Shown here: positions 8,001 through 35,454 of the stretch, one piece after another
How positions within the stretch are numbered: position 1 is the stretch's first letter
Layout of the letters: every line of letters starts with the position of its first letter
Source: Marsupella aquatica
Lineage: Eukaryota > Plantae > Marchantiophyta
DNA: 64,000 nucleotides
NCBI GenBank assembly: GCA_973895155.1
Contig: OZ316891.1
Coordinates: forward strand, 28,649,145 to 28,713,144
Direction of reading: 5' to 3'
The notes under the pieces: model-generated
What the model saw: only the letters and a program-made list of their open reading frames with translations
Database searches by the model: none
Told to the model about the DNA's origin: nothing
Position numbers and translations under genes: made by a program

Positions 8001-9708
8001 TGCATTGATCCGTAGGCATGTCTTTGGCCCGTTAAAACAAGTCCAACCTAACAATGATTACATAGACACCAGATTCACATTTGTCAGAAAGAGAAATGCC
8101 AAAGGAGATGTCATTAGATACCGCGCACGCTTAGTAGCGAAAGGCTACACTCAAATCCCGGGAAGGGATTATGATTTGACCTATTCACCTGTTATGGATG
8201 TGACTACATTCAGGTATCTTATAGCTTTCTCTCAAAAACACCAACTCTGTAATATACTAATGGACGTTGTAACAGCGTACCTATATGGAGTACTAGACTC
8301 CGAAATCTTCATGAAAGCCCCAAAAGAACTACTCGCAAGAGTGACAGAACATGTCCAAGGGAAACATTTCCAGAACTTGAGTAAGGACATGAAGTCGAGA
8401 ATACGACAGATTGTACCAGATGAGAAGCTCAAAGGCCTAGTGTTGAGCAGTGGCAACACAAATAAAGATCCACTCCAGCACCCCAGAAAAAGTGGGACTG
8501 GACAGCAGGCGTTTGCTGTGCAAGTCCTGAAATCCATCAATGGGTTAAAACAAAGTGGACGCATCTGGTACCAGAAGTTTAAAACTGAGATGCAAACCCT
8601 TGGATTTATCAACAACGATATCGCACCGTGCATATTCATCAAACACATCGATACAGAATTCGTCATCCTCGCCCTATACGTCGATGATGTCAACTTATTT
8701 GGTACTCCACAACTCTTACGCAAAACTATTAATACAATGAAGAGTATTTTCGAGATGAAAGAAATTGGAGAGCCGACATACTGCTTAGGACTACAATTTG
8801 AATACCTGCAAACTGGCACATTTATTAGTCAATCAACCTACACCAAGAAGATCATTCGACAATTTCATATGCACAATGCATATCCTGTGTCCACACCCAT
8901 GGAGATGCGGTCATTGGACACAGCTAAGGACATGTTCAGGCGACGATAGGAGAATGAACCAGCCCTTGACTCGGATAAGCCATACCTATCAGCCATTGGC
9001 GCCCTTCTATACCTGGCAAACAATACAAGACCGGATATCTCCTTCGCAGTAAGCTTACTGGCACCACACAGTGCACATCCAACTATTCGGCATTGGAACG
9101 GCGTGAAAAGGGTATTCCGCTACCTTCAAGGCTCAATAGATATGGGCCTTTTCTTCCCAAACGACAACCCAGATGAACTCATCGGTTATGCAGATGCGGG
9201 GTACCTCTCTGACCCACAGGACTCGAAGTCACAGACTGGCTACGTTTTCCTGCAAGGGAGAATTGCCATATCCTGGAGGAGTACAAAATAGAGCATGACC
9301 ACAACCTCCTCGAATCACGCAGAAGTCATCTCTCTCTATGAAGCATGTCGTGAGGCGATATGGCTCCGTAGTATTATCAACTATATCCTGAAACAAACAG
9401 GCAAAACGATATTGACCAAACCAACAATTATTTACGAAGACAATAAAGCATGCGTCGACCAAATTGTTGCAGGCTACATGAAGACAGATCGGACCAAACA
9501 TATTGATCCAAAATTCTTTTTTACGCACGAACAGAGTGGAAACCAGATCCAGGTGAAGTGGATCCGTTCACAAGACAATTGCGCCGATCTTTTTACGAAG
9601 CCCTTACCTGCGGGACCCCATCGACAGCACGTTACCGCCATCGGAATGTGTCGACTCTCTACCCTGCTTTCCCCCACTGCCGACGCACCCCGCCAAGCAG
9701 ATGCTTGA
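5098..9708 (+). pseudogene. gag-pol: Copia gag-pol polyprotein, single frame with 4 in-frame stops
   Basis: CCHC knuckle CYRCGKIGHIKKNC, protease IIDSGTSH, LWHYRLGHP, integrase core, RT (GLKQSGR, LYVDD), RNase H (GYADAGY, ADLFTK). ORFs starting at 5098, 6424, 7996, 9103 and 9295 share one frame. Confidence 0.95.
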
Positions 9709-9990
9709 AAAACGAAACAAGGACTTCGGAATTTGGGTTTCGACCTTTCCCCCCAACACCTCCCTGTTTACCAAATACCCGACCTAAGCTATACACATAT
9801 ACCTCCGACTTTACACCATTACTTTGATTCAATTAACCGTTCGGGCATAAGACATTACTTTTAGACATAGTGAACTACTCTTACTCTAAAGTTACCCTAA
9901 ATTTTAACATACCTTAGAATTTAACAGGATAATTCATCATATAGAACATACATTTTATGGACCACAAATTCTAATGATGGTAGTACAACA

Positions 9991-12900
9991 CATTCAACTT
10001 TTTATCATACTGCTGCTTCATGATATTCTGTCTATATTCTACTCTCTCGGCTGAAATCATTCTTGCCTCCTCTAAAGCTTCTAATCTATATTCTCGCTCC
10101 TTCAGGCTTTCCTCCTCTGAGACTCTTTCCTCAATTGTAACTTGAATTGTCGGTATCTCAAGTTGCATGGGTACCAGAGCTTCTTGTCCAAAGGTTAAGA
10201 AAAAGGGTGTATGTCCGGTGGTGGATTTATAGGCTAAATTGTAAGCAAAAATAGCAGCAAACAATTTATCATCCCAATCGAGTTTGTTCTGAGCTACTGT
10301 TTTGTTTAATATCTTTCCTATAATCCCATTGGCTCGTTCTGTCAATCCATTTGCGTTTGGGTGGTAAGGAGTAGTAGGCCTATGTCTAACTAAATACTGT
10401 TCATTTAAACGACTAATTATATCATTCAGAAAATGGGTTCCTCTATCACTAACTAATTCTAGGGGTGCTCCATACCTGGTGAAGATTTGCTCATACAGAA
10501 ATCAAGCTGTAGAATTGCATCATCCTTCGTTGTCGGTCTAGCCTCTACCTACTTAGTTGCATAATCCGTGGCCAGGATTATATACTTGTTTCTCCGAGGA
10601 TGGGTTAATGGTTTCAGCGGTCCAATGTAATCAATACCCCACTTCTCAAATGGTGCCAGAGGTAGAATAGGGTGCAATGGATGTCTTGTAGAGGCCCTTG
10701 GTCCTCCTGCTCGCTGACAAGGATCACATTGTTTGATGAACTGATAGACATCCTTGTGCAAGGTGGGCCACCAGTAACCGGCATTTAATATCTTTTTAGA
10801 CGTGGTTACTGGAGCAAAATGTCCGCTGGCTTCTTCTCCATGCATAGCCCGTAAGACTCGTTTTACCTCTCCCTTTTCTAAACACCTTTGAATAGTGCCG
10901 CTGATTCCATACCTGTGTAGTACACCCTTAATGTACTGATACTGTCTGACCTTCCGCAGAAAGACTGCGGCTTGTTCTCGGGTTAGCCCTGGCTGTAATC
11001 TGGACGTGCTGAGAAAGTGCAAAATCTCCGGGTACCATGTATCAGCTATTTCCACAACGAATAGCTCCTCGTCGGGGAATCAATCGTCGATGCAATCCGT
11101 GGCAGGTTCACCTGTGATCCTTGAAAAGAAGTCGGCATTGGCGTGTAGCTTCCCCGGTTTGATCTTTAGCTCGTAGTCAAACTCCTGTAATAGCAAAATC
11201 CATCTTGCTACCCTGCCTGTAAGGTCCGGCTTATTTACTAGGTACTTCAAACTTTCATGATCGGTATGAAAGATTACCTTGTACCCTAGCAAATAATGCC
11301 TAAACTTTTTACATGAATAAATGACTCCTAATGCTTCTCTTTCTGTGGTGGAGTAGTTCCATTCGACATCGGCAAGCTGGCAGCTTGCAAAGTATATGGG
11401 ATGGTCCCTCCCTTTCTCATCCAACTGACTTAGTACTGAGCCGATACAGAAGCCTGAGACATCTACAAAGACATGAAATTCCTTGTTCCAGTCCGGTGCT
11501 ATCATGACTGGGGCCTCTACTAACATCTGCTTCAATTCTACCACCGCTGTTACTCTTTCTTGGGTGGGTTCAAAGTCTGCGCCTGCCTTGAGCATGTTGG
11601 TTAATGGTAAAGCTAGTTTGGCAAAATCTTTAATAAACCAGCGATAATACCCAATGCAACCCAAGAAGGATCTTACATCCTTTATGTTCTTAGGTTGCAT
11701 GATGTCAAGCCATACTGCTAGCTTACCTTTGTCAATCTCGATGCCCTTCTTTGATACCTTGTGACCTAGTAGCACACCTTCTGTTACCCCAAAGAAACAT
11801 TTATCTGGATGTAACTTGAGACCTACCTCTCTGCATCTCATGAAGGTCTTCCTTAGGTATTTAGCATGTTTTGATGCCTTCCCAAATACTGCAAAGTCAT
11901 CAATGAAGATTTCCATGAACTTTCTCAAGTAATCATGGAAAATGTTCACCATCAATCGTTGAAACATAGCTGGTGCGTTACAGAGTCCAAACGGCATACG
12001 ATTGAAGACATAGATCCCCCATTCCGTGATGAAGGCCATCTTGATTTGGTCCTCCTGCCTAATCCTGATTTGGTTATAACCAGAGTACCCATCCATGAAT
12101 GAATATAGTTCATGACTGGCTACCATGTCTAGTACCGTATCAGTAAAGGGTAAAGGAAAATGGTCTTTTAACGTCGCTTCATTCAGCTTCCTGTAATCCT
12201 AACAAACCCGGATCTTGGTTTTACCATCGGGTCCAGCTTTCTTGGGAACTATCACAATTGGAGACACCCAGTCTGAATGCAGGACTGGAGTGATGAATCC
12301 GGCTTCTACTAATTTGTCGATTTCTGTTTTGACCATCAGGGAATACTTAGGATTCATCCTTCGAATTGGTTGTCTGAATGATTTGGCTCCTAACATTAGA
12401 TCAATTCGATGTTCCCCTAATGTTGGATCTACTCCCTTTAGATCTTGGTGACTCCATGCGAACACATCCTGAAATTCAATCAGTAAGTCACTGATCTCTT
12501 TCTCAAGCTCAGGTGCTAGGTCTCTCCCTAAGTTCAGTTCCCTTCCTTCTCCTAAGTCGAGCTTCCGGTATTGCCGTGCTTGGATCATATTAATCTGTTT
12601 CTTCAAATTCGGGTCCAGCTTGGCTTCCAGCCTCTCTAGTCTCATACCTCCATAAACTGGAATCTTGGCTGTACTAGCCGAATCGGTTTCTCCCTTGGTG
12701 CCCACAGATTGTCCCCTTGCCGGCCTATTCGGTTTTGAATTGGTAGTCGGTTTTCCTTCCGGCCTCGGCTCTGGATTGTGTCTATGCATCTCTTCCACCT
12801 CTTCCTCCTGAGGGTCCGGTCGCTGTGCTCTGCCGACTTCTAATAGGGCCTCAATTTGTTCTACCCTCGTAATTGGCTTGTATGCCGATCCCTTGGTATT

Positions 12901-15634
12901 TAATTGTTTGCCAATGATAGACGGCGTTGTGGATCCTTCCGGCTCTGCCACAACGCCTGAGGAAAATCCACCGTTACGGGTATAGCTCCCCCTTTAGCCG
13001 TTTCATCCAATTGGCTTACTTCTTGTGCTTCCTCCGGAATTGCAGCTAAAAAGGTGGACTCTATGGCAAAGCAGTCCTCGGCTTCGTCTTCACAATCCTT
13101 CAAGTCATTCTCCATAGGTTCTTGCCATAGTCCGCTAGGGGATACCTCTGGTCCAAAGACACTTTCTTCGGTTTGGTCAGCGAGGCATTCTAACCATCGT
13201 ACCTCATCGGCTGATTCCAGTCCACTGTCGTACCTGTCTACCTCCCTGATGTTTCTTCTGCGGTCATCCTTGGTATCCCAGGATACCGTGATAGAGGGGG
13301 TCCCAAAAGTGAACTCCTTCTTACCCCAATCTTCTATTACCTTGGCTAGGTATAGCCACGGTCTACCAATCAATAGCCGGAATGACGTAGGATTCACCGG
13401 CTTCATTACAACATAGTTAATGCTAAAGAAGATACCTCCTATCTTTGTCTTGATGCCGGTTAACACTCCCGTGGGAATGACCTAATACCCATTGGCCATA
13501 TTCAACACTCTTCCAGTCATTTCCGGTGTTAGACCCCACCCCTTTGTTGTTGAATCAATCATAATACATACCCCTGATCCTCCATCGATGGGTACCCGTA
13601 GTAATATTTCTCCTTGAATCATTAATGGTAATGCTGGGGCTCCTTGATCTTCTGTCGGATCTGGTCGCTACCTTGGCTAATCTTGGCTTGCCAAGGATCG
13701 CCTTTCTTAACTACTTCCGGAAGTACGAGCTATTTTTCAATAGTTGACCTACTATTGCCGAGACTCTAGATTCTAGTACATCTTTAGCCAGGTCATAGGG
13801 AACTATCGGTTTCTCCAGTGGTGTCTCTATCTTAGATTCGGCCTGTTTTTTCACGCTAGTCCCTACAGCCGTTGGATCTTCCGAAGCAAACAATGCTTTT
13901 GCTCGTTTCATATCGTTGGCTATGGCTTCAGTATTCTCCAGGGTTTCTAATTCTCGCAGTTGTTCCTTAACACTAGCCGTGATAGATGGGTAGAACAACT
14001 TAGGGTGGTCTCGATTGAAGTCGCTATCCTGTGAAGGATTGGGCTCACTGGTGGGCTCATGGCTTACCTGTGTTGACGGTGCCCTTCCTTCTCCTTCCGT
14101 TGATGTTGACGAAGAGTCGATCTTTTCTTCCTAAACCTTCCCTTTATTTTTGGCCAGCCCATCCCACCTTTCCTTCCTTCTGGTTGATCGAGTAGAGACC
14201 CGGTAGCAATCACGATCCATATCCTCTTCTGAAAATGTTGATAGGGCCTCGGTCTCATCATCAGATGGTCCAAATTCTGCCTCGGCATCCACTTGCCATC
14301 CGAGTTCGATGTGGTTGATTTGAACTCCTCCTGGGGTAGTACCTGGCGGCAAGACCTTGACCGGCAAGAGCTTATGATTTGCGGCCAATCCCGCCAACCA
14401 AGTAGGACATTGTCCTAGCATGTGACCCTCCTGTCGGCATCCCATACATAGCTGAGCTGGTTGTCCATCACCTTGTTTGCGTGCATTCGGGCATTCTCTA
14501 GCAAAATGGCCAGGTTGACCACAATTATAGCATGCCGCAAATCTTTGCACATTCGGCCTAGGAGGTACTGACGGATTCTGAATAATCCGAGGATACATCT
14601 CTCCTGGATTGTTCCTTAATCCTGACCAGAGAGATGCAGGTCGGTTGGATAGGTCTCGTGCTCCAGTCTCACTGATGCCGAAAACACTATCAGCTGCATC
14701 TCCTAGAAAGTACTCTACTTCTCCCTGACATGGTCTGACTTCAGCCACATGCCGAACATGACTAGTATTGAGCTTAGGACATGCATCTTTATGGTGTCCG
14801 GTGTTATAACATAAGGCACACCATACAGAGCTATCCTCCTGCACTACCTTCTTCTTTGGTTTTACCTCTGCTATTATAGCTTTAAGCTGCTCGGTAAGGG
14901 CTACGATGTTATCTGATGGTTTAGCCTCCAGCTTGACTTTCGTCTTTCCTCTTCTTTTGCCCTTCCTTTTCCTAGTTTTTTCTTCTTCAGAACTAGAGGA
15001 TGACTCACTCTTGCTACTTCCACTATCCGAGCTTGAGTTATCACTTCTTGACTTCTTAGAGTGTTTCTTTTTCTTATCCTTTTTCTTATGGGGTGATCCC
15101 TCCTCCGATGAGGAACTCTCAGACTTAAGCTGTTTCTTCCGGCTTGTGATATCTGCATTAATGTATAATTGAATATCTTTAATTGCCTCGGCTAAAGTCT
15201 CTGGGTTCTCCTTCCTAATTGCAAAACTCATCTTCTGTGGCAAAGCATTCACCAACCATTGAAGTTGCATACCTTCAGATGCATTGGTCTTTGTACGTCT
15301 TACCAGTTTCTGAAAGCGTTGCAAGAACTTCCTGAAGGATTTGTTCTCCTTGAACCGAAGTCGTCCCAACTTCAGCACTGCTAGTTCTGAAGTTCCAATG
15401 GGTCAAAACTCCTTAACAAATAGTGTTTTGAAGATATCCCAGATGGCTTGATCTTCCACATCCAATGCTCTGTACCAAGGCCTAGCCTCACCCTTGAACA
15501 GGCCGGGAAGAATCTGCATCTTGATGGCCGATTCTCCATTTGCTGCAGCGGTTCCCTTGAAATCATCCAACCATTCGTCCGGATCCTCATCTCCTCTTCC
15601 ATGAAATGCTTTGTAATGAATGCGCGACCGTTGG
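9991..15634 (-). pseudogene. gag-pol: Gypsy gag-pol of element A, degenerate
   Basis: Gag (EWLDDF..GEARPWY, three CCHC knuckles in 14131-15378), protease (LLIGRPWL), RT (FMDGYSGYNQI, FIDDF), RNase H (FVDVSG, TDH), integrase (GYWWPTLH, WGIDYIGP). Several stops. Confidence 0.95.
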
Positions 15635-18575
15635 TGTCAAACACTTGTCAAGGAGCTTAAGCATCTTTTCCCCTAAAAAACTACCTAATACTTGCTCCAT
15701 GTCATACCAGGGTCACAAAGGATTGACAAAACTTCTGAAATGTACATGCAAGGTCTAAGTACACCATACACAAGTAGTTTCAACTCTCTACTTCTAGAGA
15801 GGTAGTCACCTTGACTACTTTTGCACTCGCACTCTTTCTCTCTCCTCTACTCCAAGGATTAGCAAGGGGGATATCCACTCCAAGCTGTCACCTTAGAGTA
15901 GACCCTAAAAAAAACACCCAAGAACCCCAAGTACTTTTCTCTTCAAGCTTAAGTCCCCTCAAGATCCTCAAGGTAGTGTTACCCCTTAACCTTGCCCCCC
16001 CTGCCCTTGGTTTGGGTCCACACACCCCCTTGAGCTCTAGAAAAACTCTTCTTGCAAAGAACTCTTCCTCTTGGTTCTCACACAAAGCAAGGTACTTTCC
16101 ACCCTCAAGATACAATCCTCTCTAAACCCCAAAGTAGTGCTCCACCTTAACCTTGCCTCCCTGGCCTTGGTTGTGTACCAGCACATCCCCTTCACGATTA
16201 GACCAAGATTGCATCCTAGCATGGACTCTTCTCTTGCTCTCAAACACTTCACATTTAATCACACTTAGTGGTCACAATGAAGATTGGAAGAATCCTTTTA
16301 TTGTATACTCAATCCTTACATAAAAGGTCACTACACACTCTCCACACTAAGCATGGACCTCCTTCCCCTTCTCAATCTTAGCCCCAACTTGCAAGGTAGA
16401 GCTTACACTTAAGAATGAGACTTCTGGTCCTCAACAAATGAAATCTTCCACCTTCTATACTATTCTCCTTTCACACCACACCAAGCTTGACCTGGGGTCC
16501 AACTATACCTCCCCCAAGTCCTCCTAACACACCAAGTCCAAACTATAGTTCATAGCTCACTCTACAACCTATTGCTTGACTCCTTCCAAGCCCTGGAATA
16601 TGCCATACATGAGTTGCATACTTTGACCTCCAAACCTGCTCCCACTTATGGTCCTTTTCATCAGCTTTCCAACGCACTTGAAAGCTTGCAAAAAGAGTTC
16701 TTGAGTCCAAAGTTATGCCTAGTCAAAGTTGGCCTTATTTGACTTGTACCCCTTATACTACCCTAAGCAAACTACCCTCTATACTCACTTCTATTAACTT
16801 GATGGCCTTGCACCTTCGACCAAAGGTAAGTACCCTTCCCTAGAGCCTTACTAAAGTGGTATGGGTACCCAAAGTGTTTGGCCCTACATCTGGTATTCAT
16901 TCCCCCTTGGCAGCTCCCGTTTGCAAGCTAGCGGGACCCCCCATGGCGACGGTTTAAAATATCTCTGGGTATTTCTTTTCCTGGATTTCTATCTTCACTC
17001 AATGATGCTTTACCTTCCCTTGAATCGGCACAAAAAATATGGGCCTCAACGGATGCCCCTAGCTCAAGTTATGGCATTTTCCCTCTCTCAATCCCTTATG
17101 TGCAAAAGGGCTCCGAATTACACTGTCATAGGTCCCGGTTTACACTTATGTGTATACCAGGTGTCGACCTGAGAGAGTTCCTCATAAGGTCCAGTCTTTC
17201 CAGAAGCTATAGAGCTTAGCATCGTGCCTGATTGTGCAGCTGATTTGAGGATGATTCCTTGACTAATTGCTTGACTGATTTTTGCAGTAGCTTCTCCTCT
17301 GATTTATGACTGACTCCCTTCTAATTGTTGGGCTGGATTGTGATTGATTTGCTCAGGAGTAGCCATAGCTCACAACTGCTGTAAATTGCAGCAGCTGGTC
17401 AATTCTCAGCACATGGATTCTCAATTGCCAGCCATTCTCTTTTGAATTTACTCAGCACAAGCTTACCTACCCGCAGATTGAATCAGCCAACACATTGAAT
17501 CAGTCAGCACATTGAATCAGCCAGTAGAGTGAATCAGCCAGCAGCATCCACGTTTTCCTTGGCAGCAAGCTCTATAGTCTATGTAGTGCCTGCCCTTTCT
17601 CAATTTGTCAGCATCCAGGCAGAGATCATGTTTACTAGACAGCTGTTGCATCAATTTCACATTGCCTAAGTTAGCCGATCTCGTGCTGGAGTAACAATAG
17701 CCCACCATAGATTTTCCACCATGTGATTTCATAGTCTAATCACTCAACTCACAGCCGCCCTCGTGCTTAGACTCCTTCCTGCCTCGTGCTAGCCTCGTCG
17801 CAGCCGCATCGTCGAGTTTCCACACTTAGAAAAAATTTGGTTCTCTCGCGGGAGAAAACTTTGTACTAGCCCTTTTTAAAGCCATGCCAAAACTCACCCA
17901 TAGGTCTAAAAGAATTTCTGAGCATAGTTATGAGATCCTTGGACATAGGACTCCCTCCTGAATTTGTCAAACGCACTAAATACCCCGCAATGACTTTTCT
18001 AAAAATACCTAAGTTTGCCCATATCTATAGGTTGTATTACTTTTCCCAATCTTTGAGGTGCTCCCAAAAACTAACCAAAGTTGATAAACTACTTCTTAGA
18101 CTTTCAAGGGATATTATGGGCTATACTATACCCAATTTTAACCTCGAACCAAAAATATCTACCCCTTGGCTAATTTCTCCGGGATCCGCTAGATGGTTAT
18201 TTTAAGTTCAGCCAAAATACTCACAATTCCTAGGTTGAGACCCTACTTCACTTCATAATTTTTCAGGGTTCCCTAGGGACCTCCCCGCACCCATGGGAGA
18301 AATATTAGCCAAAAATGAGATGTCAGGTGTTGGGTCATTTTCCGGTCCCGACTTAGTCGCCTATCCTAACTAAGGAAAGAATATTTGCTGCCCTACCATA
18401 AAGACCTCACTTATCCCTTTACATCTTCTTAGAACAACATATTTTTCCCTTCCATGATTCCCTACTATCCTTCCTTAGTGACTTAGGGTTGCAAACCCTA
18501 AGTACTTTACTAATGCTAAAATGTATTTCTTACTATCCTTGTACAAAAAGCAAAAAAAATGATGAGTTTCTTACA
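15635..18575. other. 2.9-kb non-coding segment bounded by TG..CA; possible solo LTR of another family inside gag of element A
   Basis: Starts TGTCAAAC exactly where gag homology stops and ends TTTCTTACA beside an 88-aa ORF. Flanks GTTGG and TACCC do not form a TSD. Confidence 0.4.
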
Positions 18576-18579
18576 TACC

Positions 18580-18846
18580 CTATTTTGAGCTAGTCCACAG
18601 TCGGCTCAATCTGGTCCCTGGCCTCTCGTCTGGCCGTGCCTCTGGTTCCCCCATGTTGGTTGGGTACTCGTTTCTTCCTACCGACTCCTCTTCTGGTATG
18701 TCTTCTTCGACGCCACTTCCAGCTTCGGAGCTACCAGCTCTTTCTGCCCCTCTTAGTCGCTGTGTATCATGCCACCCGGCGAGCTGCTGCAGACGAGCTC
18801 TCTCCCGTTGAATCGCTCTTTCCTCCCTTGGTGTAGGTTCAGTCAT
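18580..18846 (-). CDS. 88-aa acidic ORF just after the PBS; probable detached gag N-terminus
   Basis: ATG about 50 nt downstream of the PBS, in sense with gag; low-complexity E/R-rich composition. Confidence 0.4.
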   Translation of the reverse strand: MTEPTPREERAIQRERARLQQLAGWHDTQRLRGAERAGSSEAGSGVEEDIPEEESVGRNEYPTNMGEPEARPDERPGTRLSRLWTSSK

Positions 18847-18915: not shown

Positions 18916-21900
18916 TGTGGTGCGTCCCATGGCTCCCTAAACCCCAGAAAACCCCCCTTCACAAGCCGATTCCCGCGGGTTTCGCGCTTGGCGAGGCCGT
19001 TTCCGCGGCTTAGTGGCATGGGACGCTGCTAACCTCCTTCTACTACTACTATTAACATTTTACACACATATACTGAACAGATCCTTCATCGGGTCATGAG
19101 ATACATAGCCGGCCTAATCTAGGCCTTCCCTTGTCTTCCCCTTGTCTTGTTAGGTATATTTGGATTCCGCCGCCGGAATGATCCCCAATAGGCTTGGTTA
19201 AGCCGCTAAGACCTCTCTCAGCTCGACACATCCAACTCTCACTCCCTTGCTTACTTTTCTTCCTCTATTAGTTGATGTGGGCACTCTTCACACAAGTTAA
19301 TGCGACACACAAATAGCAAAATGACTCCTTCTGACTGAGTCATACCATGCACTTGCCATACAAACAGTACATCTCATACACAAGCTCTGCGAACTAAGCC
19401 GTGAGGCCAACTCTATTCAGCTCTTAGGCATGAGGAAACATGAATATACACAAGGGTCACTGTATGACTAACAGAGAGCTTCTCTTACTACTTGATCCCA
19501 GCCCGGCTGGTGCAACTAAAAACTTGCTAAAGAAGAGGCCCTGAGCTCCCCGCTGCCCAGGTACTTATCCTGGTAGTGGATCCGCCTAATTCTTTGCAGC
19601 GTAAGCTTAATCTACCTAACTGAATCTACCTATGTACAGCAAGGCAGGAGTACAAGTGTTCCTCTTACCAGCGGAACCGCAATCCCACTAAGCTAAGTGT
19701 CAGGGCCGCCTCCTGGTCCTGATCCTAATCCTAAACTTAGAGATCTGAGCCCGCCCTGCCCACTCACGCCTCCTCCCTCCACGTCCGCCCTCCTTGAAAG
19801 GAGCGGCCCTCCACCACCGTCATGGCAGCGGTGTCTGTTCCTCAGTGGACGCCCCCAACGCTTCCACCTCAGCCACTGCCGTAGGTTCGTTCTCTGACAG
19901 ATTACCTGCCCTTGACTGAGTCAACTCTCCATCGGCTTGACTGGGTCCACCCCCGGCAACGGCATCGGCTTCAACATCAGCCTCGGCTACGGCCTCAGCC
20001 ACGGCTACGACCTCCCCTGCACACTCAAGTGGCGGATTGGGTACCTCGGCTTTATTACCGAGTATCCTGGCCTCGGCTTTGTCATCCCCTTCTTCTAGGG
20101 TAGTTGGATCCTCTGTCGTAACCCTGCCTGAGGTCGGTGCTGGGTTTACCTCCTTGCTCACCACGGCCTGTGGAGCCGTATTACTCCCCGACCCTGAAGG
20201 TTTCCGCTTCTTCTTCTTTTCTGGTTCGGCAGCTGGCCCCTTCCCCTTCCCACTTACTTCCGGCACTAGTGCAAATGGCACGGCTTGTCCTTCGGCCAGT
20301 ACCACTCCTGGTAACTTAGTGGCCTCAATTTGAGTTGGCCTTGATGAAGCCAAGCACTTAAATACTGCGGCTTGTTTCTTCAGCCGCTCCGTTTGGTTGT
20401 CGGCTCGTCATTGTAAGTTCTCTAGGTTCCGCATGCTTTCCTCCAACTCTTCCTGCACTTCGTCCAGGTCCTTGCGCGCCTCCTCCAGCTCCTTCTGGGC
20501 TTCCTCCAATTCCTGTTTAAACGCAGCTCTCTCCTCCCGGGTCGCTCTTAACTCCTTGTCGAGCTCTGCAATGATGACAGACTCCATCTGGTTCATCTTG
20601 GCGTAAGTCTAATCGAGCATATTGTCCTTCTCACGCAGGTCGGCCTTGAAGCTGGCCCTCAGGGACGCAAGCTCCTGCTGCAGCGCAATAATCCCTTGAT
20701 AGGATTTCCCTAACTCGGCCTCCTTCTTCTCAAGGGCTCCGCGGATAACCTCAAGCTCCCCCTTCAATGCCCTTTCCCTTCTCAGGGTCTCCGCCCTGGC
20801 CCGGTTGTTGGCTGTTATGTGGGCCTCCTCTGCATCCCTCAGCTCTCGCTTCCACTTCTCCCGCTCCTTGATCGCATCGGCCACCTCTTCTTGGGTTCGA
20901 GTCAATTTATTCTCGATAATCCGATTATCAGACTGTGCGGTATCCAATTGGCCCTGCATGATATTTAGCTCATGCCGCTTAATCCGTAGCTCATCTTGGG
21001 CTTTCTTGGCCGCCCCTAGGTCTTTGATTTTGGCTTCCCTTGCCCTGAGCCGACGGATCACCTCGTCCTTCTTGCTTCTTTCCAAAGCCACCGCTTCTTC
21101 TAATTGGCGCTTCTCCAACATCTCCCTCTGAAAAAAGGGTCCTTGCTCCAACTCCTCCCCAAAGATGCTGAGCGCCAGCTCTCCACACATTTCCCCGTAT
21201 TCCATGGCTCTATTCTTAGCATAGGTGGAGGAAGTAGAAGTCATCGGCATCATCCACCGCGGCCTCTGCTCCCAAGCCGTCTTGCGGATCTCTTCTATTG
21301 TGGCTGGAGGGATGCTTCGTTTTTCTGCAAGCCGCCTGATGTCCTCTGGCCATTCTCCTCCTGGTAAATCCTTTTCCCTAGCCAAGGCTGCCTCCTCTTC
21401 CTCCCTGATTCGCTCCTGAAATTCCTGCGCCGTTTGTTTTATGCCGTCAAAGCTCGGGGGAGCGACATCTGGTGGGGGAGACTCGGGGCTACTCTGCTGG
21501 CCTGGGTCTCCTCGAACTACTCTTGGGAGCGTGGGGATGAACCGGCCACAGGTCCTTACTCCTGGAACATGATGATCCGACCCGTAGCCGGAGTCATCAT
21601 TGCTGTAGTCCTCTACCGCCTCCTCCTCGGCTTGGACTACCGGCTTCTCCCGCTGTTCTCCTGGTTTTGTCGTGAACACGGCTTCACCTCTCACCGGTCT
21701 TGGTTCCTCCTCCGGCCCGTGTTGATCTCTTGTTCTCCTTGTCGTGGCCGGGAGCTACGGCCTGCTTTTCCTCGGCTTCGGGACTTGAGACTCCTACATA
21801 CATCCGGACTCCCGGCTCGTGTTCCGGCCTCCCTCTCTCCTTGACCCTAGTAAAGGGGTTTTCCCTTGTAAGCCGGCTTAGGCCCACCTCTGGAGCAGTG

Positions 21901-23646
21901 TCCTGTATTGGTGCCGTTGCCGTTGCCGTTCTCTTTTCCTTCTCCAGCAATTTCAGCAGATTCTGCATGCCTGGTTGCTGCATCGGCAAGTCCTCCGTCC
22001 TTGGCCTAAACACCTGCTCGATTGTAGGACTGTCGGGCGGGTTGGGTTTCTCCGTTGCCGGCCTTTTCTCCGGGACCTCCTCCGGTGCTCTTGCCGATAG
22101 GGGAAGTAATGGGGCAAAGATTTGACTTCTGACATACCGGCACAACAGCGGCATGTGATAGCCAAGCCGGGACACGCTTCCCACGCCGATCACCTGCTAT
22201 TCCTCCTTCAAGATCTTCTTCAGTTGGTTGAGGAGGTACCCGTTGTAATCCCGGCTTGGGTCTGGCCTTTCTGCCAGGTAGACCTGAGCCTTGCCGATCT
22301 CTGCCCTCGGCAAGTTACAGTGCATGGTCACCCACAAGAAATCGATCATCTCTCCGATGTGCGGGTTGGTGCAGGTGTTCTGGAAGAAGCCATTCTTTGT
22401 TGATAGTCCTGGGAACAACCAAAACTCCTTGTCAGGTAAGGTCTTCCTGGTATCAACCTTGGTCTTATTACCCATCGGCAAGCCAAACACTTCAGCAATC
22501 ACCCGGGGAGTGAGATAGAAATCCTTCCCATACACCCTTGTGGAATTGGTCTCGGACTCCCATGATCCCACGAATTCTAACAAGTCTGAGTCCGGCACCT
22601 CCGGCTTCAGCCATGGTAATCTTACGAAGGCTTCCAAGCCGGATGCGGCCATGAAGCCTTGGTACTTCTTGGTCTGCATAGCTGTAAAGCATGCATCCTC
22701 CTCCCGTGCAAAGTGTAATTGCACTTCCTCCGGTAGGGTCGCCGCCCAGCCTTTCCAGGTGTCATCGTTTGTTGGAATGGCATTGATGGGGTCGACCTCC
22801 TCCTCCTCGGCTTCTCTCTGCCTCTTGCTCTGCTATTCTGCTGGCTTCTTTGGTGCCGCCGACCTCGTTCTTTTTGCCGGGGTGGCCTCTTCGTTGTTGT
22901 TCCCCTTCCTCTTCATCTCGGCTCCCGTGGATGTCTCTCCTAGCACGGTTGCCTTTGTCCACCCCTCCGTGCTACCCTTCAACTCCCACTGTATGTCGTT
23001 GCAGCGTTTGATGGCTTCTCGGATGCCGATGACTCTATCTTCGCAAAATAGCAGGTCGTCTAGCTCGTTGCCAGTAGGCGTCCACAGGAATTCAACCTTG
23101 ATGAGTTCTCCTCCTAAGAAAGCAGCTTTCTGCAGCTCCCACAATCGGGTGAGCTCCTGTCGTTCTTGAGCTGCTCTCTCCGATTCTTCGTCCTCGTAAG
23201 TCCCAATGTACTCAGTTGCCCGTTCGAACAGGCATCCCCAAAAATGTGCCGCTTGATTGACGTTGCTCATACCCTTCTCGAGTTGATAGTCGGTATCTGT
23301 TCCCACCCTGAGCGCTTGCCTAAGCAGTTGACAGTAGTTGGCCGCCCGTAGTCGCCTGCCCAGTTCGTGCTTGCAAATGAGCCACTATTCCTCGCGAGCG
23401 GTCCTTAGCCCTCTCCTCCTCTGGTTCTCCCTCCCGTTGGTTACCCCTAGCCGCCGGCACTTAGCGTGCCCTAACCCTAATCGTGTTCTCTCCCCTGGCG
23501 TCCTTACTTCCGGCCTCGGCTTGGGGTCCATAGTCACCCTTAATTGTTTATATTTTCCTTATTTATGTAACTATACTAAGGTGTTTCTAGGGTACACTTC
23601 CCTTTTCCCCTTAAACTAGCCCAGTGATTCCTGGCTAGGCATCACA
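18916..23646 (-). repeat. 5' LTR of element A (family-1 copy 1a, 4731 bp)
   Basis: TGTGATGC...GCACCACA inverted termini; adjacent PBS; same boundaries as the TSD-flanked solo copies. Confidence 0.93.
19820..23270 (-). pseudogene. LTR-encoded protein, family 1 (PMD/plant-transposon-like domain + coiled coil), disrupted
   Basis: Colinear ORF pieces 22833-23306, 22197-22724, 21684-22193, 20609-21694, 20408-20596 and 19820-20353 match the intact reading in copy 1c. Confidence 0.85.
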
Positions 23647-28001: not shown

Positions 28002-28882
28002 AACTGTAGAGTAGGGTTTAGAGTAAGAATAACTATTCTTCTCTTTAATAGCCTAGATTCATTCCCGTTAAGAGCTATTGAGACCTAAAAGATTGTAATA
28101 TGATACTTTGAGTACTTTTGAGTAACATACTCAGGTTACAAGCCTTTTTAACATGCTCAGGTTTATGGAAGGAATTTTATGATACTTCCATGAAAGGTAT
28201 GACGTTTGTATCGTCCATAGTGCAATCAAAAGGGGTAAAAAGTGTTAAATAAAACCAAAAGCCAGCGGCGTGAAAACTGATAGAAGGCGAGTTATAGATG
28301 GAAATACACCTTATCACTACATAGTAACTCATGACCAGCGGTAGTACATTAAGAATCATCGGTGTAAAAACTCATATAAAACTGACGCCTACATATCCTC
28401 TTCAAACCAGCCATCTTTAGAAAATTATAAAAGATTAGCATAAGGTAGCCCGTATTGATTTTCTGACCTATGTCAAAGCAAGGTGGTACTAATCACTCCA
28501 AACCAACTTATTCTTTTATTCAATCCATCAGATTGTTCTTTTGGATCTATGCAATTTGTGGAATTCTAGTGGTGAATTTGTATCAGCTCCTTATTGAATA
28601 CAAGAGCTCTATAGTCAACACGAATCAATAGGCTTTTGCATGATCTCAAGCATGCGTTTCCAGTCAGCCTACGGGTCAACCAAGCATTACTAGTCACATC
28701 AAACAGCTTTTTCTAGTAAGGGATAATCACACACTAAGATTGAATCACAAACCATAGATTACCAAAAATTACTAAAATAGACTTCTCATTGATTAATTAC
28801 TTCAAAGAGAAGGAGACTTAAAGTTGAAAGCTAATTTCATGAAAGTCATATTAAGTCTGAGGTTCAAGGAAGAATCTCTCCC

Positions 28883-28892
28883 TTATATATAA
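28883..28892 (-). promoter_or_regulatory. Candidate TATA box of the family-2 LTR
   Basis: TTATATATAA, 230 nt downstream of the LTR ORF stop and about 880 nt before the LTR end. Confidence 0.55.
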
Positions 28893-29123
28893 GAGAGATC
28901 CGCTTGAAAAACTACATGAAAAGACATGCCTTTTCATTATGTAAAAACTAATAAGGTTAACTAGATAAAACTAACTATACTAGGTGAAAGGGGAGAGCAT
29001 ATCACTTCCTTCCTTTCCTACAAAACATGGAAAATGGTCGGAACAAAGGCGAAAATAAAATTTCCGGTTCAACCTCCTTTTGAAAATCAGAAGCCGGTTG
29101 AACCTGTTTTTACAGAATCCGGT

Positions 29124-30845
29124 TCATCCGTCTTGGTGTTTAACTATGGCTTCAGGAATTTCTGGCTCTTCAGGAATCTTTGGAGTGATATTGGGAGTAG
29201 GTGCTTGACTTTGGAGGGGTTCTATAACATAGGTTACTCCTGTGGAGGTAGTAACAATGTTGCCAGGGGCAACCGGGTTGGTAGGATACTTGCTCATGAG
29301 GGAAGTCCAATCGAAAGGTCCGGGAGTGGTGGTAGGAATGGTCCCTGAGGAAGAGGTGAAATCAGGAGCAGTAGTATCAAGAGTGGTAGGTTCTCCTGAT
29401 AGAGGGGATGGAGAATACTGAACTGGTGTCTCCCCATCATCCTTAGCCCAGATCTGGTGTAACTCATTCATTTGGCCCAAAATCTCCTTCATTGCATTCA
29501 GGCAGTCCTCAAGTTTATCTCCATGGTCTTGAGAGATACGAATGACAGTAGCAAGGCAAGTAGGATTGGGTACTTTTACAAAGTACTCTCGAAAGAGTTC
29601 TGTCTGGACCAAATCTCTACCTCTGGTGTTCAGGAAAGGGTCCAAACGATCCACTAAATCTTCCAGACTCTCAATGGCTTCTTCCTCCTTCTTACTCCTC
29701 TGTCTTCTCTCCTTCAGCTGGTTTTCACAATCTGATTCTCTAACAAACTTCTCCTTGAGGTCCTTTTCCATTCTCTCCACCTTCTCCTTGTTGCCAGCAG
29801 TCTGTATTACATGCTCAAAGTTTGCTACTAATTCTGAGACTGGAACACCTGCTACTCGAGCCATCTTGGCCAGGTTCTGTTCCATGATACCCATCTTCAC
29901 TTGTATTGCCTCCATCTCTCGCTGGATGACTGAGAAATGATTCTGAGAGGATTCTGAGAGCGAACCGGAAGTAGGAATACAGGTGCTGGCCGGTTGAACC
30001 GGATTCCCTCCTAAAGTTAACTTACGGTGCTTGGGAGGTTCAACAACTTGTACCTCTGCTTCCTCTTCGTCCTCTTCTGTGTCCTCTACCTTAACAATCT
30101 CTGGATCTGGGACTCCATAAAGGACATAACTGTTCTTTGTCCCCAAAAGATTCTTCTCCTGTTTGAACAGGACTCCTGCTTGGGCATACAAATGAATCAC
30201 GTAGGAAGACAAGGGGGTGGCCGATTTCCCATTGAGATTAGTTGCCAGCTTTTGTATCACATTATACAGGATGGTAGCCCAAGAAATAGTCTTCCCCTTG
30301 TAGAGGGCAGCAATGATAGTGCTCCCTACTCTCTGGATGACTCATTTTGGTTTCTCTGGGTATAACTGGGGAACCAGGAAAGCCAATACCCTTCTCAAGT
30401 CTCCATCTATGCACTGATTAACACTCCATCCTTCTTTCTCGTCCATCTTTCCTACAAAGTAATCTATGGTGAGGTTCTCTCCTCGGGGAAGTAGACTAGA
30501 GCCATCTGTACGCACTTGGTAAGCTTTGCCAATAGCCTCTTTGGTCCAAAGCTTAGGTTGGGCTCTGATGGTATTAGAAAACTCACTTGGGGCTTCTCCA
30601 GTGAGTATCTCTCGGATAACATCTTCACTCTGCCATGCCCAGGTCATCAGAAGTAGGTTGTGGCATCCCATCCTCTCTAGATCAATCCGCAACCTCTCCT
30701 TCTCTTCTGGTCCGGTTGGTAGTACAGGTCTTAGAGGCTTCAAAGCAATAGGTAAATCCTTCCTCTTAGACCGTCGAACCTCGCTCTTGACAGGGGTAGT
30801 GTCCGCCTTCGCCTTCTCAGCAGATTGGGGTCTCTGGTTCCTCAT
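29124..30845 (-). pseudogene. LTR-encoded protein, family 2 (~573 aa, one in-frame TGA)
   Basis: ORFs 30342-30845 and 29124-30260 are in the same frame. Homologous to 57898-59640 (LRP, RMGC, WQSED.IREI, DLRRV..FL.P.LYPEKP, TPLS.Y..HLY). Confidence 0.85.
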
Positions 30846-31222
30846 GGTGGCTCAACCGGTTCTCGTTAAGGTGAAATCCGGTTCAGAGCGGAAGCCGGTT
30901 CAACCTGTTTTGGTCTCAGATTCGGCTACAGGCTGATCCAAGACTTATGGTTTAGTGGTTAAGCCGCTCCTTGCATTGAGATCCTCCGGTGGAATGGACC
31001 GGACTTAGATCATTAGGGAAACCGGTTCCACGGGTTGGGGAGGTTAAAACGGCTTTCTTCTGTCGAACCGGCCATCTCAACCAAGCAACTTTTCCGGTTA
31101 GCACCTTAAAGTGCTCATAGGAGGCTAACAGGTCTAAAAGGTCATAAGAGTTAGTATTTCCAAGGGTTAAAATTTTAAAATTCCCCTTATTTCTTCTTTT
31201 ACCAAATAAACATCATCTCACA

Positions 31223-31846: not shown

Positions 31847-32682
31847 TGTGGTGCGTCCCATGGCTCCCTAAACCCAAGAAACCCCCCAGCTCAAGCCGAT
31901 TCCCGCAGGTTTCGCGCTTGGCGAGGCCGTTTCCGCGGCTTAGCGGCATGGGACGCTGCTAACCTTCTACTACTACTATTAACATTTTACACACATATAC
32001 TGGACAGATCCTTCATCGGGTCATGAGATACGTAGCCGGCCTAATCTAGGCCTTCCCCTGTCTTCCCCTCCGTCTTGTTAGGTATGTTTGGATTCCGCCG
32101 CCGGAATGATCCCCAATAGGCTTGGTTAAGCCGCTAAGACCTCTCTCAGCTCGACACATCCAACTCTCACTCCCCTGCTTACTTTCCTTCCTTCTGGTAG
32201 ATGTGGGCACTCTTCACACAAGTTAATGCGACACACAATTAGCAAAATGACTCATTCTGACTGAGTCATACCATGCACTTGCCATACAAACAGTACATCT
32301 CATACACAAGTTCTGCGAACTAAGCCGTGAGGCCAACTCTATTAAGCTCTTAGGCATGAGGAAACATGAATATACACAAGGGTCACTGTATGACTAACCG
32401 AGAGCTTCTCGTACTACTTGATCCCAGCCCGGCTGGTGCAAACTAAAAACTTGCTAAAGAAGAGGCCCTGAGCTCCCCGCTGCCCAGGTACTTATCCTGG
32501 TAGTGGATCCGCCATTCTTTGCATCGTAAGCCTAATCTACTTAACAGTAATCTACTTGCCCGAATCTACCTATGTACAACAAGGCAGGAGCACAAGTGTT
32601 GCTCCTACCAGTGGGACCGCAATCCCACTAAGCTAAGTGTCAGGGCAGCTCCTGGTCCTGACCCTAATCCTAAACTTGGAGA

Positions 32683-34704
32683 TCAGCACCCGCCCTGCCC
32701 ACTCACGCCTCCTCCCTCCACGTCCGCCCTCCCTAAAAGGAACGGCGCCCTTGCACCGTCACGACACCGGTGGTGGATCCTTAATGGACACCCCAACGCT
32801 TCCTCCTCAGCCACTGCCGTAGGCTCATTCTCTGACAGATTACCTGTCCTTGACTGAGTCAACTCTCCATCGGCCTGACTGGGTCCACCATCGGCGTCGG
32901 CATCGGCTCGGGAATCGGTTACGGCCTCAGCCTCGGCTATGGTCTCCCCGGCCTGCTCAAGAGGCGGATCTGAAATACCGGCCTCATTACTGAGTAGTTC
33001 GGCTTGGGCCGCACCACCCCCACCTGTGATGATAGCGGGATCTATTGCCATATTCATGCCGGAGGATGGTGCTGGTTCTACCTCCTTGGTCACCACGGCT
33101 TGTGGAGTCGGATTACTCCTTGACCCTGAAGGTTTCCGCTTTTTCTTCTTTTCTGGTTCGGCAGCTGGTCCCTTCCCCTTCCCACTTACTTCCGGCACTG
33201 GTGCAGTTGGCGCGGCTTTTTCTTCGGCCAGTACCACTCCTGGTAACTTGGTTGCCCCAATTGGAGTTGGGCCTGATGAAGACAAGCACTTAAATACTGC
33301 GGCTTGTTTCTTCAGCTGCTCCGTTTGGTTGTCGGCCCGCCGCTGGAGGTTCTCCATCTTCCTCGTGATTTCCTCCAACTCCTCCTGGGTCTCATCCAGG
33401 TCCTTGCGTGCCTCCTCTAGTTCCTTCTGGGCTTCCTCCCGTTCTTGTTTCAAGGTAGTCCTCTCCTCCTGGGTTTCTCTTAGTTCCTTGTCGAGCTCTG
33501 CAATGATGACAGACTCCATCTGGTTCATCTTGGCGTAAGTCTGTTCGAGCATCTCGTCCTTCTCCCTTAGGTCGGCCTTGAAGCTGGCCATCAGGGACGC
33601 AAGCTCCTGCTGCAGCGCCATAATCCCTTGATAGGATTTCCCTAACTCGACCTCCTTCTGCTCAAGGGCTCCGCGGATTTTCTCGAGCTCCCCCTTCAAC
33701 GCCCATTCCTTTCTTTGGGTCTCCGCCATGGCCCGGCTGTTGGCTATTATGTGGGCCTCCTCTGTATTCTTCAGCTCTTGCTTCCACTTCTCCCTCTCTT
33801 TGATCGTGTCGGCCAACTCTCCCTGCGTCTGAGTCAGTTTATCCTTGATATTCTGATTATCAGCCTGCGCGGTGTCCAATTGCCCCTGCATGATGTTCAG
33901 CTCATGTCGTTTAATCCGCAATTCATCTTGGGCTTTCTTGGCCGCCCTTAGATCTTCAATCTCGGCTTCCATCCTCCTAAGCCGCCGAATGACCTCGTCC
34001 TTCTTGCTTCTCTCTAAAGCCACCGCTTCTTCTAATTGGTGCTTCTCCAACTGCTCCCTATGGAAAAAGGGTCCTACCTCCAACTCCTCTCCAAAGATGC
34101 CGAGCGCAAGTTCCCCACACATCTCACCATACTCCATGGCTCTATTCTTAGCGTAGGTGGAGTAAGTAGAAGTGATCGGCATCGCCCATCGCGGCCTCTG
34201 CTCCCAAGCCGTCTTGCGGATCTCTTCAATCGTGGCTAGAGGTTTGCTTCCTTTTTTGGCTAGCCGCCTGATGTCCTCCGGCCAATCTCCTCCTGGTAAA
34301 TCCTTTTCCCTAGCCAGGGCTGCCTCCTCTTCCTGCTTGATTCGCTCTTGAAATTCCTGCACCGTCTGTTTTATGCCGTCGAAGCTCGGGGGAGCAACAT
34401 CTGGTGGGGGAGACTCAGGGCTACTCTGCTGGTTGGGGTCCCCTCGCACTACCCTTGGAAGTGTGGGGACAAACCAGCCACAGGTCCTTACTCCTGGGAC
34501 GTGATGGTCCGACCCATAGCCGGAATTATCATGGCTGCAGTCCTCCACTGCCTCCTCTACTTCTTGGCCGTCCGGCTTCTCCCTCTTCTCTTCGTCGGTA
34601 GGAGCTTCAGGCAATTCTGCCTCAGATTTGGAGCTTGAGATTCCCACATACATTCGAACACCTGGCTTGGATTCAGGCCTGATTCTCTCCTTGTCTCCAG
34701 CAAA
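32683..34704 (-). CDS. Family-1 LTR protein in copy 1c, C-terminal part (coiled coil, K-rich NLS-like motif)
   Basis: Open for 673 codons; joins 43948-45110 in frame once CACTA 2 and one TSD are removed. Confidence 0.85.
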   Translation of the reverse strand, partial: FAGDKERIRPESKPGVRMYVGISSSKSEAELPEAPTDEEKREKPDGQEVEEAVEDCSHDNSGYGSDHHVPGVRTCGWFVPTLPRVVRGDPNQQSSPESPPPDVAPPSFDGIKQTVQEFQERIKQEEEAALAREKDLPGGDWPEDIRRLAKKGSKPLATIEEIRKTAWEQRPRWAMPITSTYSTYAKNRAMEYGEMCGELALGIFGEELEVGPFFHREQLEKHQLEEAVALERSKKDEVIRRLRRMEAEIEDLRAAKKAQDELRIKRHELNIMQGQLDTAQADNQNIKDKLTQTQGELADTIKEREKWKQELKNTEEAHIIANSRAMAETQRKEWALKGELEKIRGALEQKEVELGKSYQGIMALQQELASLMASFKADLREKDEMLEQTYAKMNQMESVIIAELDKELRETQEERTTLKQEREEAQKELEEARKDLDETQEELEEITRKMENLQRRADNQTEQLKKQAAVFKCLSSSGPTPIGATKLPGVVLAEEKAAPTAPVPEVSGKGKGPAAEPEKKKKRKPSGSRSNPTPQAVVTKEVEPAPSSGMNMAIDPAIITGGGGAAQAELLSNEAGISDPPLEQAGETIAEAEAVTDSRADADADGGPSQADGELTQSRTGNLSENEPTAVAEEEALGCPLRIHHRCRDGARAPFLLGRADVEGGGVSGQGGC

Positions 34705-35454
34705 CACTAGTAGAAACCGGGGGGTATTTAGACCCCATTAAACGACTATGTAGTACCGTATAGGACTCGGAAACGACTGGGAAGGACTCCAGTCCTTTAT
34801 AGGACTGTGAGTCGTATGTTTTGTTACTATAATCAACTGAGTCCTTTATAGAACTGGTTCACGAGTCGTTTAATAGACTGGATTTTCAGTCTATTGTAGT
34901 CTTTGTTTGGGTAGCTTTGGTGAGTCATTTTCAGTCTTTTAAGGGGTGTGATGGCGAGTTGTTGGGAAGGACTAAACAGGTTATGGAGGGTAGTCTTTAA
35001 GTTTACTTTGTGGGTCTATAAAATGACTAAAGGAGATACTTAGTGGGGTATGTATAAGTCTTTCATGTCAACTCGAAATGAGTGATGAAGACCCCACTAT
35101 ACTACTTGGAATGTGCACAAATAAGACATTCCATTCATGTTTTTTTGTGTACTGTAAATGAACTCACTCTATAAGGTCACAAAGCATGAAACTACCATAC
35201 ACACTAATATTGAAATGATACAAAACAGATTCTAGTATCATCCAATGGTCACCTTACAGCCATAGTTTGACATCAATCACTTGTTTCATACATACACACA
35301 GAATTCAGAAATATATACATGTCACACATAATGATAACAAATCCTTCATCCTCTTTACCAAATGGAAAAATTGGTACAGATATTTCTTGGATCTTTCCAA
35401 GGCAATGTCAAAATGTAACACAATTCACATGGTTCTATCTACACTTGCATTCAG

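Follow-up and report, generated by a model that had tools for sequence, protein, structure and literature searches.

A conserved reading frame inside the long terminal repeats of a liverwort Ty3/gypsy retrotransposon, with a predicted VANC-type core fold

Can a plant retrotransposon carry an accessory gene inside its long terminal repeats (LTRs)? This question is raised by a 64,000-nucleotide stretch of the liverwort Marsupella aquatica (contig OZ316891.1, positions 28,649,145 to 28,713,144; hereafter the window), where a 4.7-kb LTR of a Ty3/gypsy element, which we call element A, is filled for the most part by one reading frame. We suggest that this frame is a conserved, LTR-borne gene for a predicted DNA-binding protein with the VANC/MAIN fold, which likely recognises the word AWGCCG of its own family and may protect this family from silencing; to this reading as a whole we assign a probability of about 0.5.

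The unit in question (18916..23646, 4,731 bp) is the 5' LTR of element A (family 1). It lies on the minus strand, reads from 23646 to 18916, begins with TGTGATG and ends with GCACCACA (TG…CA). Behind its 3' end stand a 4-nt spacer, TTTT, and an 18-mer resembling a primer-binding site (PBS), TGGCGCTAGATGGAGGGG (18911–18894, minus strand), while the second copy of the unit begins at 4187, immediately behind the purine run AAGTGGGGAA (4200–4191), which represents the polypurine tract (PPT). This 3' LTR is interrupted after its first 460 bp (3728..4187, minus strand) by the end of another family-1 LTR in inverted orientation and the end of a CACTA element, and therefore neither its full length nor the target-site duplication (TSD) of the whole element is visible in the window; over the visible 460 bp, the two LTRs of A differ by 10 mismatches (2.2%). 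Self-comparison of the window reveals one repeat present in five long copies and one fragment, and two of these copies, B and E, are solo LTRs flanked by 5-bp TSDs (ACTGC and GTCCC, respectively). The short terminal direct repeats by which the original prediction proposed to recognise a terminal-repeat retrotransposon in miniature (TRIM) or a large retrotransposon derivative (LARD) are absent from unit A, as are an inner PBS and any self-match at E<1e-3, and the TRIM/LARD identity was rejected on these grounds. No tRNA genes were found in the window.

Public sequencing data, represented by contigs from four runs of unrecorded kind belonging to four studies, show the LTR 3' end as loose ends leading into unrelated flanks in three of the four runs (agreement 0.35–0.58), and the same PBS is read behind this end in three of the four, among the loose ends listed. 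Where the 3' LTR of the window stops, contigs extend into the open reading frame (ORF) in 2/4 runs, among the contigs listed. Summed contig depth falls at both LTR ends in all four runs, although depth is not copy number and yields no ratio of solo to full-length elements. We regard it as nearly certain that the 4,731-bp unit is the LTR of an LTR retrotransposon, as was originally claimed from the PBS, the PPT before the second copy, and the two solo copies between 5-bp TSDs; its TG…CA ends agree with this. The accompanying claim that each element carries the gene twice agrees with what LTR replication is expected to produce, but only 460 bp of the second copy can be seen.

The gag-pol region of element A (4176..18846, minus strand) encodes a zinc knuckle, reverse transcriptase (RT), RNase H (RH), as well as integrase (INT), and has received two later insertions; without them, the size of the element would be ~15–16 kb. 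The gag ATG is located 70 nt behind the LTR. At the opposite side, the integrase ends ~25 codons past its last conserved block, the PPT (4191..4200) lies within its last codons, and pol continues across the PPT to a stop at LTR nt 10–12. Therefore, the interior consists of gag-pol only and the accessory gene belongs to the LTR; because it is located beyond the PPT, reverse transcription by its standard mechanism places a copy in each LTR.

The domain order of A, gag-protease-RT-RH-INT, is that of Ty3/gypsy non-chromoviruses, and neither a chromodomain nor an additional RNase H (aRH) was found in the pol segments scanned, where RT_RNaseH alone matched; by these domains, A is classified as a Ty3/gypsy non-chromovirus retrotransposon. 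Its RT is 70% identical to Calypogeia fissa proteins and groups with Calypogeia fissa elements (SH-aLRT, a likelihood-ratio branch support, 99), apart from angiosperm matches, in a quick tree of 58 rows, which comprised the window RT and 57 of 120 matches (the top 45 plus the named plant matches longer than 270 residues) without labelled references. The absence of aRH and the 5-bp TSDs fit Athila, and they fit equally the liverwort Tat lineages Z1/Z2, which are aRH-less (PMC10508981, PMC13468544). The aRH-bearing Tat lineages were rejected since no additional RNase H domain was detected in the pol segments scanned, and the Phygy/Selgy elements were rejected for their 4-bp TSDs (PMC6317226) as opposed to the 5-bp TSDs found here.

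The frame within the LTR is read in sense with gag-pol, has ATGs at LTR nt 116 and 377, and stops at nt 3825–3827, 0.9 kb before the LTR end; counted from the second ATG it spans ~1,150 codons (19820..23270, minus strand) and leaves a 0.9-kb non-coding tail (18916..19819). Copy E retains it as three open pieces (528, 1,161, and 1,902 nt) parted by two insertions, with a frame change near the end. Pairwise codon comparison of separate pieces over ~1,170 codons gives dN/dS values of 0.28 (0.23–0.34) for E–A, 0.43 (0.30–0.59) for E–B, and 0.38 (0.28–0.48) for E–D, while shifted-frame controls for the same pairs give 0.92–1.58. At the level of codon substitutions, these values show that the ~1,150-codon LTR frame is under purifying selection, a signal that most simply represents the record of selection on transposing lineages. 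The large sense gene inside the LTR that had been proposed for this locus is thus supported by both LTR anatomy and purifying selection on the frame.

The constraint begins at the ATG at nt 377. In the 87 codons between the two ATGs (23271..23531, minus strand), pN/pS is 1.18 against A, 0.99 against the 3' LTR of A, and 0.60 against D, and both LTRs of A have a common stop there; this stretch, unconstrained as a protein, is likely a leader. Therefore, of the predicted protein length of ~1150-1240 aa, the evidence favours the lower value, ~1,150 aa counted from nt 377, over the upper one, ~1,240 aa. Along the frame, pN/pS is 0.15 in a core domain of ~200 aa, its most conserved part (approximately 22100..22800, minus strand), about 0.3 in a long putative coiled coil, and 0.81 in the last ~150 codons, where constraint is lacking. 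The coiled coil is suggested by the composition of ~250 aa in copy E (approximately 20370..21110, minus strand), which are rich in E/K/R/Q/L/A and poor in Pro/Gly, with a maximal hydropathy of 0.83; it is followed by the basic run KKKKRK (copy E). No transmembrane segment was found in any of the seven open pieces scanned, where the maximal 19-residue hydropathy was 0.46–1.13, and an env-like protein was rejected for this reason.

Is this arrangement an accident of one family? Homologous ORFs occur in two more well-supported LTRs and in one probable LTR of the window, which indicates, as judged by sequence homology, that it is not. The 5' LTR of family 2 (28005..31222, minus strand, 3,218 bp, AACCGG-rich) contains an ORF of ~573 codons with one stop (30845–29124, minus strand) and is followed by its own PBS, TGGCGCCGCTGCCGGGGA (28001–27984, minus strand), and its own gag; this PBS may be of the tRNA-Asp type, which is dominant in Athila. 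The solo LTR of family 2b (56919..60509, minus strand, 3,591 bp, TSD TCTGG, ACCCGG-rich) carries an ORF of ~580 codons, also with one stop (59640–57898, minus strand). In family 3 (60866..64000, minus strand, CGTACC-rich), the ORF comprises at least 745 codons with one stop and is open at the window edge; it ends 0.9 kb before a …CGTGACA end, and since its 5' end lies beyond the window, the unit is a probable LTR. Families 2 and 2b share 50% identity over 151 aa in the core, family 1 is 29% identical to the family-3 core over 185 aa (E 5e-21), and families 1/3 are linked to family 2 by HHalign (probability 94.6, E 6.6e-8). Two other solo LTRs in the window (15635..18599 and 52330..54628) are non-coding, so long LTRs do not hold ORFs here by default.

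What kind of protein might the frame encode? For the family-3 core, a confident model was obtained (predicted local distance difference test score, pLDDT, 89.2), and in Foldseek its top match was the VANC21–DNA complex (probability 0.99, TMq 0.54, root-mean-square deviation (rmsd) 5.9, E 0.019), the next rows having probabilities of at most 0.02. VIA-align, run against 48,161 chains, gave VANC21 with Z 7.4, rmsd 5.2, and 205/216 residues aligned, followed by a chain with Z 2.2. For the family-1 model, the same tool ranked VANC21 first (Z 4.1, rmsd 4.8, 161 aligned), the next chain having Z 3.3 with 83 aligned. In the ESM Atlas, families 1 and 2b lead to clusters of PF20167 (Transposase_32) and PF03078 (Athila ORF1) at 0.86–0.88. 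Word-index protein searches with the N-terminal 428 aa of family 1 and with the family-2b domain produced no matches, while an exhaustive protein search yielded 21, with P0129 (a bacterial repeat protein) left out as seemingly spurious; ten of the 21 were looked up, and they represent Calypogeia fissa clusters (four) and unnamed or "hypothetical" entries (six).

On the basis of these models, the core domain very probably has the VANC-type fold. VANC is reported to be structurally homologous to MAIN, a protein of the plant mobile domain (PMD) group, and both VANC and the Athila domain oligomerise via coiled coils in models (PMC13547354). The predicted combination of a core and a coiled coil found here matches this VANC/Athila-domain plan. 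Since a VANC21-type core, a coiled coil, and a basic run are predicted and a membrane segment is not, the product would be a nuclear oligomer rather than an envelope protein.

VANC proteins bind short motifs with which they co-evolve and which differ between families (PMC5735166), and for this reason 6-mers were counted in the window. AAGCCG occurs 24 times in LTR A against 2.6 expected from dinucleotide shuffles, AACCGG 16 times in family 2 against 0.7, and ACCCGG ten times in family 2b against 0.6, with z values of 12–19 for these words and of 4–6 for the best control; in family 3, CGTACC occurs ten times. The excess persists under synonymous-codon shuffles of each family's own ORF (0, 0, and 1 of 500). 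For the broader word AWGCCG, synonymous-codon shuffling gives 22 occurrences against 7.9 in the family-1 ORF and 16 against 5.6 in gag-pol (0/1000 each), and it is not raised in any of the four other coding sets tested. Its density is 4–7 per kb in family-1 LTR pieces, 2.8 in gag-pol, and at most 1.3 per kb in other elements, with one exception discussed below. None of the three words is found in the copia element or in the ORF-less leader LTR. These counts show that every ORF-bearing LTR family has an excess of a CCG- or CG-containing word of its own. The family-2 leader (26501-28004, minus strand) also contains AACCGG, five times against 0.5 expected.

The position of the gene relative to the promoter can be approached from the LTR copies. 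Between A and the other copies, divergence is only 2–7% in the final ~750 nt of the LTR, compared with 6–32% per 150-nt bin in the ORF part; a distinct promoter/R/U5 block, maintained by constraint or by recombination, fits this pattern. In the family-2 LTR, the only TATA-like box, TATATAA, is located behind the ORF. Because the last ~750 nt evolve apart and family 2 has its box behind the ORF, we favour a U3 position of the gene. In family 1, TATAAA occurs once, at LTR nt 95 (23547..23552, minus strand), upstream of the unconstrained stretch, and is kept in five of five LTR starts; it could be the promoter of the ORF or the main promoter. A solo LTR would express the gene only if this TATAAA acts as its promoter, and on this depends the original argument that the gene outlives deletion of the element: it is true for the gene as DNA, but both solo LTRs of the window, B and E, are disrupted.

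We propose the following scheme. With the PPT placed in the last integrase codons, everything downstream of pol, including the accessory gene, is copied into both LTRs and into every solo LTR. The frame is under purifying selection. The predicted product, combining a VANC21-fold core, a coiled coil, and a basic run and having no membrane segment, would form a nuclear oligomer. Each ORF-bearing family being enriched in its own CCG-/CG-containing word, the protein would, by analogy with VANC, bind the word of its own family and keep the element hypomethylated or transcribable. The gene would be situated in U3 and read either from the portion of the element RNA that corresponds to the 3' LTR or from a promoter near the beginning of the LTR (TATAAA, nt 95); with such a promoter, a solo LTR would constitute a gene complete in itself. 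Within this scheme, binding of the family word is, by analogy, slightly favoured; for an anti-silencing effect, the odds fall just short of even.

A number of observations weigh against this reading. No uninterrupted copy of the frame is present in the window: copy A has four in-frame stops after the second ATG and one frame change, B has a frame-changing deletion and two stops, and D has two stops, frame changes, and insertions; accordingly, the "one long ORF" of the original prediction stands in its sense orientation and its start and stop positions and is broken in every copy seen. Searches of Pfam (including PF03078, PF20167, and PF10536, and DUF1985/DUF287) and a sequence search of PDB gave no match, and the ESM Atlas leads are below the 0.9 line. 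The family-1 core model is mediocre (pLDDT 67.6), Foldseek of it against PDB and BFVD returned nothing significant, with VANC21 not among the 50 rows listed, and its Z of 4.1 is less than 1 above unrelated chains. The family-3 match also has limits, namely a Z of 7.4 below the tool's safe level, an E of 0.019, and identities of 9–11%; moreover, the strong match belongs to the domain whose LTR status is least certain, family 1 being linked to it by sequence. MAIN, which shares the VANC fold, promotes silencing, and the fold alone does not define function. As for the words, they were chosen from the same sequences as tested, and the W in AWGCCG was set after seeing gag-pol, so that the test is not independent. 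They are dispersed, mostly in coding DNA, and form no tandem arrays, unlike the VANC motifs, which occur in non-coding tandem repeats (PMC5735166). Taken alone, neither the non-coding portions of LTR A nor the tail of family 3 has a word above control; of the 25 word positions in the ORF, only 15 are common to A and B, against 0.41 for background 6-mers. One non-coding 2.3-kb solo LTR (52330..54628, plus strand, TSD AAGAC) reaches 4.3 AWGCCG per kb. In this solo LTR, which ends with CGTGACA like family 3, AAGCCG occurs nine times, four of them in a 26-bp tandem array, and it is a candidate hitch-hiker on the family-1 protein.

The rival explanations concern the unit, the placement of the gene, and its role. 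It might be argued that the 4.7-kb unit is a separate element, TRIM/LARD-like or other, which by chance flanks gag-pol, and indeed an element complete with both full-length LTRs and a TSD is missing from the window, where only 460 bp of the second copy are visible. We consider this highly improbable, since the unit lacks terminal direct repeats and an inner PBS of its own, a PBS stands behind one copy and a PPT before the other with the two copies only 2.2% apart, solo copies are flanked by 5-bp TSDs, the PBS follows the identical end in the public runs, and family 2 repeats the same layout with its own PBS and a solo copy. A different placement would be an ORF in R/U5 with the TATAAA at nt 95 as the main promoter, which would make it the first cistron, like the 5' extra ORF of Ogre, with the PBS behind it. 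The TATAAA at nt 95, which has no second occurrence in the LTR and is kept in 5/5 starts, and the leader-like lack of constraint up to the second ATG would agree with this. However, the strong-stop DNA would have to be ~4.6 kb long, which is unusual, the only TATA-like box of family 2 is behind the ORF, the final 750 nt evolve separately from the ORF region, as is expected of a U5 or promoter block, and misplaced ATGs occur in the leaders of B, E, and D; an R/U5 placement is therefore unlikely.

The same LTR gene with the same fold may also play another role (transcriptional activation, RNA handling, chromatin tethering, or integration targeting), or the words may be docking sites of host factors unrelated to the ORF. 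The fold is common to MAIN and to the Athila domain, whose transposon-borne functions are described as unknown (PMC13547354, PMC8616336), the words are mostly in coding DNA, unlike VANC targets, and a non-coding LTR carries the family-1 word. Opposed to this are the presence of an own word in each ORF-bearing family, the lack of the three words in the copia element and the ORF-less leader LTR, and the fact that the one relative found that has a solved structure binds DNA in a sequence-specific manner; we regard another role as possible but rather doubtful, and retain self-recognition of the family word as our explanation. If it is extended to the group as a whole, liverwort retrotransposons would have moved a VANC-type self-recognition gene into the LTR, thus joining gene, promoter, and words in one cassette with an own protein–word pair per family; solo LTRs would be trans-acting anti-silencing genes, non-coding LTRs would borrow the word, and the VANC/MAIN/Athila fold would have been present on non-seed-plant retrotransposons before the described angiosperm forms. 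We offer this extended scenario tentatively and consider it less probable than its opposite.

The remaining copies form a nest. Solo LTR B (45111..49769, minus strand, 4,659 bp) is inserted in solo LTR E (31847..50415, minus strand), which is also split by a 9.2-kb CACTA element (34705..43944, minus strand, 9,240 bp, CACTAGTAGAAA ends, TSD TTT). The latter has a 160-aa ORF (40160-39678), which resembles a fragment captured from a host gene and has a hydrophobic segment at its N-terminus. Copy D (51126..60865, plus strand), the 3' end of which is not visible, is a family-1 LTR with two solo LTRs inserted. The last 649 bp of another family-1 LTR (3079..3727, plus strand) are inserted in reverse in the 3' LTR of A and are cut at 3077 by the end of a second CACTA element (CACTAGTAGAAAA, window 1-3077). 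Thus family-1 LTRs are inserted into family-1 LTRs twice (B in E and the inverted copy in A), and these two cases, together with the three other LTRs counted in D, may reflect an insertion preference. B and E are 0-5% apart over most of the LTR, but the distance rises to 11-22% in the ORF's last ~750 nt (46000-46800 versus 32700-33500), where E resembles D; such mosaic LTRs likely result from template switching. The oldest layer of the nest is the remains of a gag-protease element (31148-31846 and 50416-51125, plus strand), which has received E, D, and the family-2 element as insertions. In element A, a non-coding solo LTR of another family (15635..18599, minus strand, TSD with one mismatch), skipped by contigs in 2/4 public runs, occupies the gag start, and a Ty1/copia element (4487..9990, plus strand, ends approximate) the integrase gene; the latter is nearly open, with four stops and no frameshift, and its ends are not TG…CA at the positions tried.

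Why might such genes have escaped notice? Plant LTRs are treated as non-coding, and long LTRs can exceed the limits of LTR finders, so LTR-borne genes would be annotated as "hypothetical proteins" of the host; the named homologues found here are unnamed Calypogeia products. Gypsy-borne PMDs are known in angiosperms (PMC5418596), and a counter-silencing role of such proteins was suggested rather than shown (PMC8616336). Several families with homologous proteins and different words would permit a direct test of this PMD/Athila-type proposal (PMC8616336), and no experimental case of counter-silencing in an LTR retrotransposon was found in the literature searched. These families are also relevant to the question of a retrotransposon origin of the PMD/VANC fold (PMC5418596), and the protein–word pairs, if true, would be natural sequence-specific epigenome tools.

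Among the known systems, the closest by position is the mouse mammary tumour virus (MMTV) sag, a whole ORF within U3, a region that HIV-1 nef overlaps (PMC12789967). As in sag, the whole ORF is within the LTR, downstream of the PPT, and duplicated at both ends; unlike sag, a membrane superantigen, it is ~1,150 codons long, lies in the 4.7-kb LTR of a Ty3/gypsy element from a plant, and encodes a predicted soluble DNA-binder, and the sag-type U3 position is for the liverwort ORF a candidate one. Among plant elements, extra ORFs are described between the LTRs (PMC7264820), including those of Athila, Ogre, and Retand with Gypsy-borne PMDs (PMC6317226, PMC5418596, PMC11728184), a group in which LTRs reach ~5 kb (PMC6317226). 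The comparison drawn in the original prediction, with plant accessory ORFs between the LTRs and MMTV sag as the analogue of an LTR gene, agrees with this literature. Our frame resembles Athila ORF1/Transposase_32 (PF03078, PF20167) in being a sense accessory ORF of a non-chromovirus that adjoins pol, in its likeness at the embedding level, and in a basic run similar to a nuclear localisation signal. It differs from the Athila/Ogre/Retand ORFs by its location in the LTR of an element with a gag-pol-only interior and by the lack of a Pfam match, and the PMD is described as angiosperm-only (PMC8616336) while the element here is of liverwort type. Retrosat2, RIRE3, and RIRE8 likewise combine LTRs above 3 kb with an extra ORF, but their ORF0 is upstream of gag-pol, is treated apart from the LTR, and belongs to a chromovirus-type lineage (PMC3485330). 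Phygy/Selgy are, like A, non-chromoviruses of non-seed plants whose polyprotein fills nearly the whole interior, but they have 4-bp rather than 5-bp TSDs, a total length of 4–10 kb, and no extra ORF (PMC6317226). The literature searched, which covers few subscription journals, yielded no plant element that carries a gene within its LTR, and PMC12885004 and PMC12844716, in the passages covered, do not describe such a layout.

By its product, the gene is comparable to VANC21 of Arabidopsis VANDAL21 (PDB 9lnj/9lnk), with which it shares the predicted core fold, the coiled coil, the status of an element-encoded accessory protein, and the family-specific short words. VANC, however, belongs to a DNA transposon of the Mutator type and is described as specific to dicots (PMC13547354), whereas here the carrier is a retrotransposon; no sequence similarity to VANC21 was detected, and binding and demethylation would be ascribed to the liverwort protein by analogy. 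We conclude that the architecture is real and that the gene is probably sag-like in position and, by this analogy, probably VANC-like in function, being a member of neither system.

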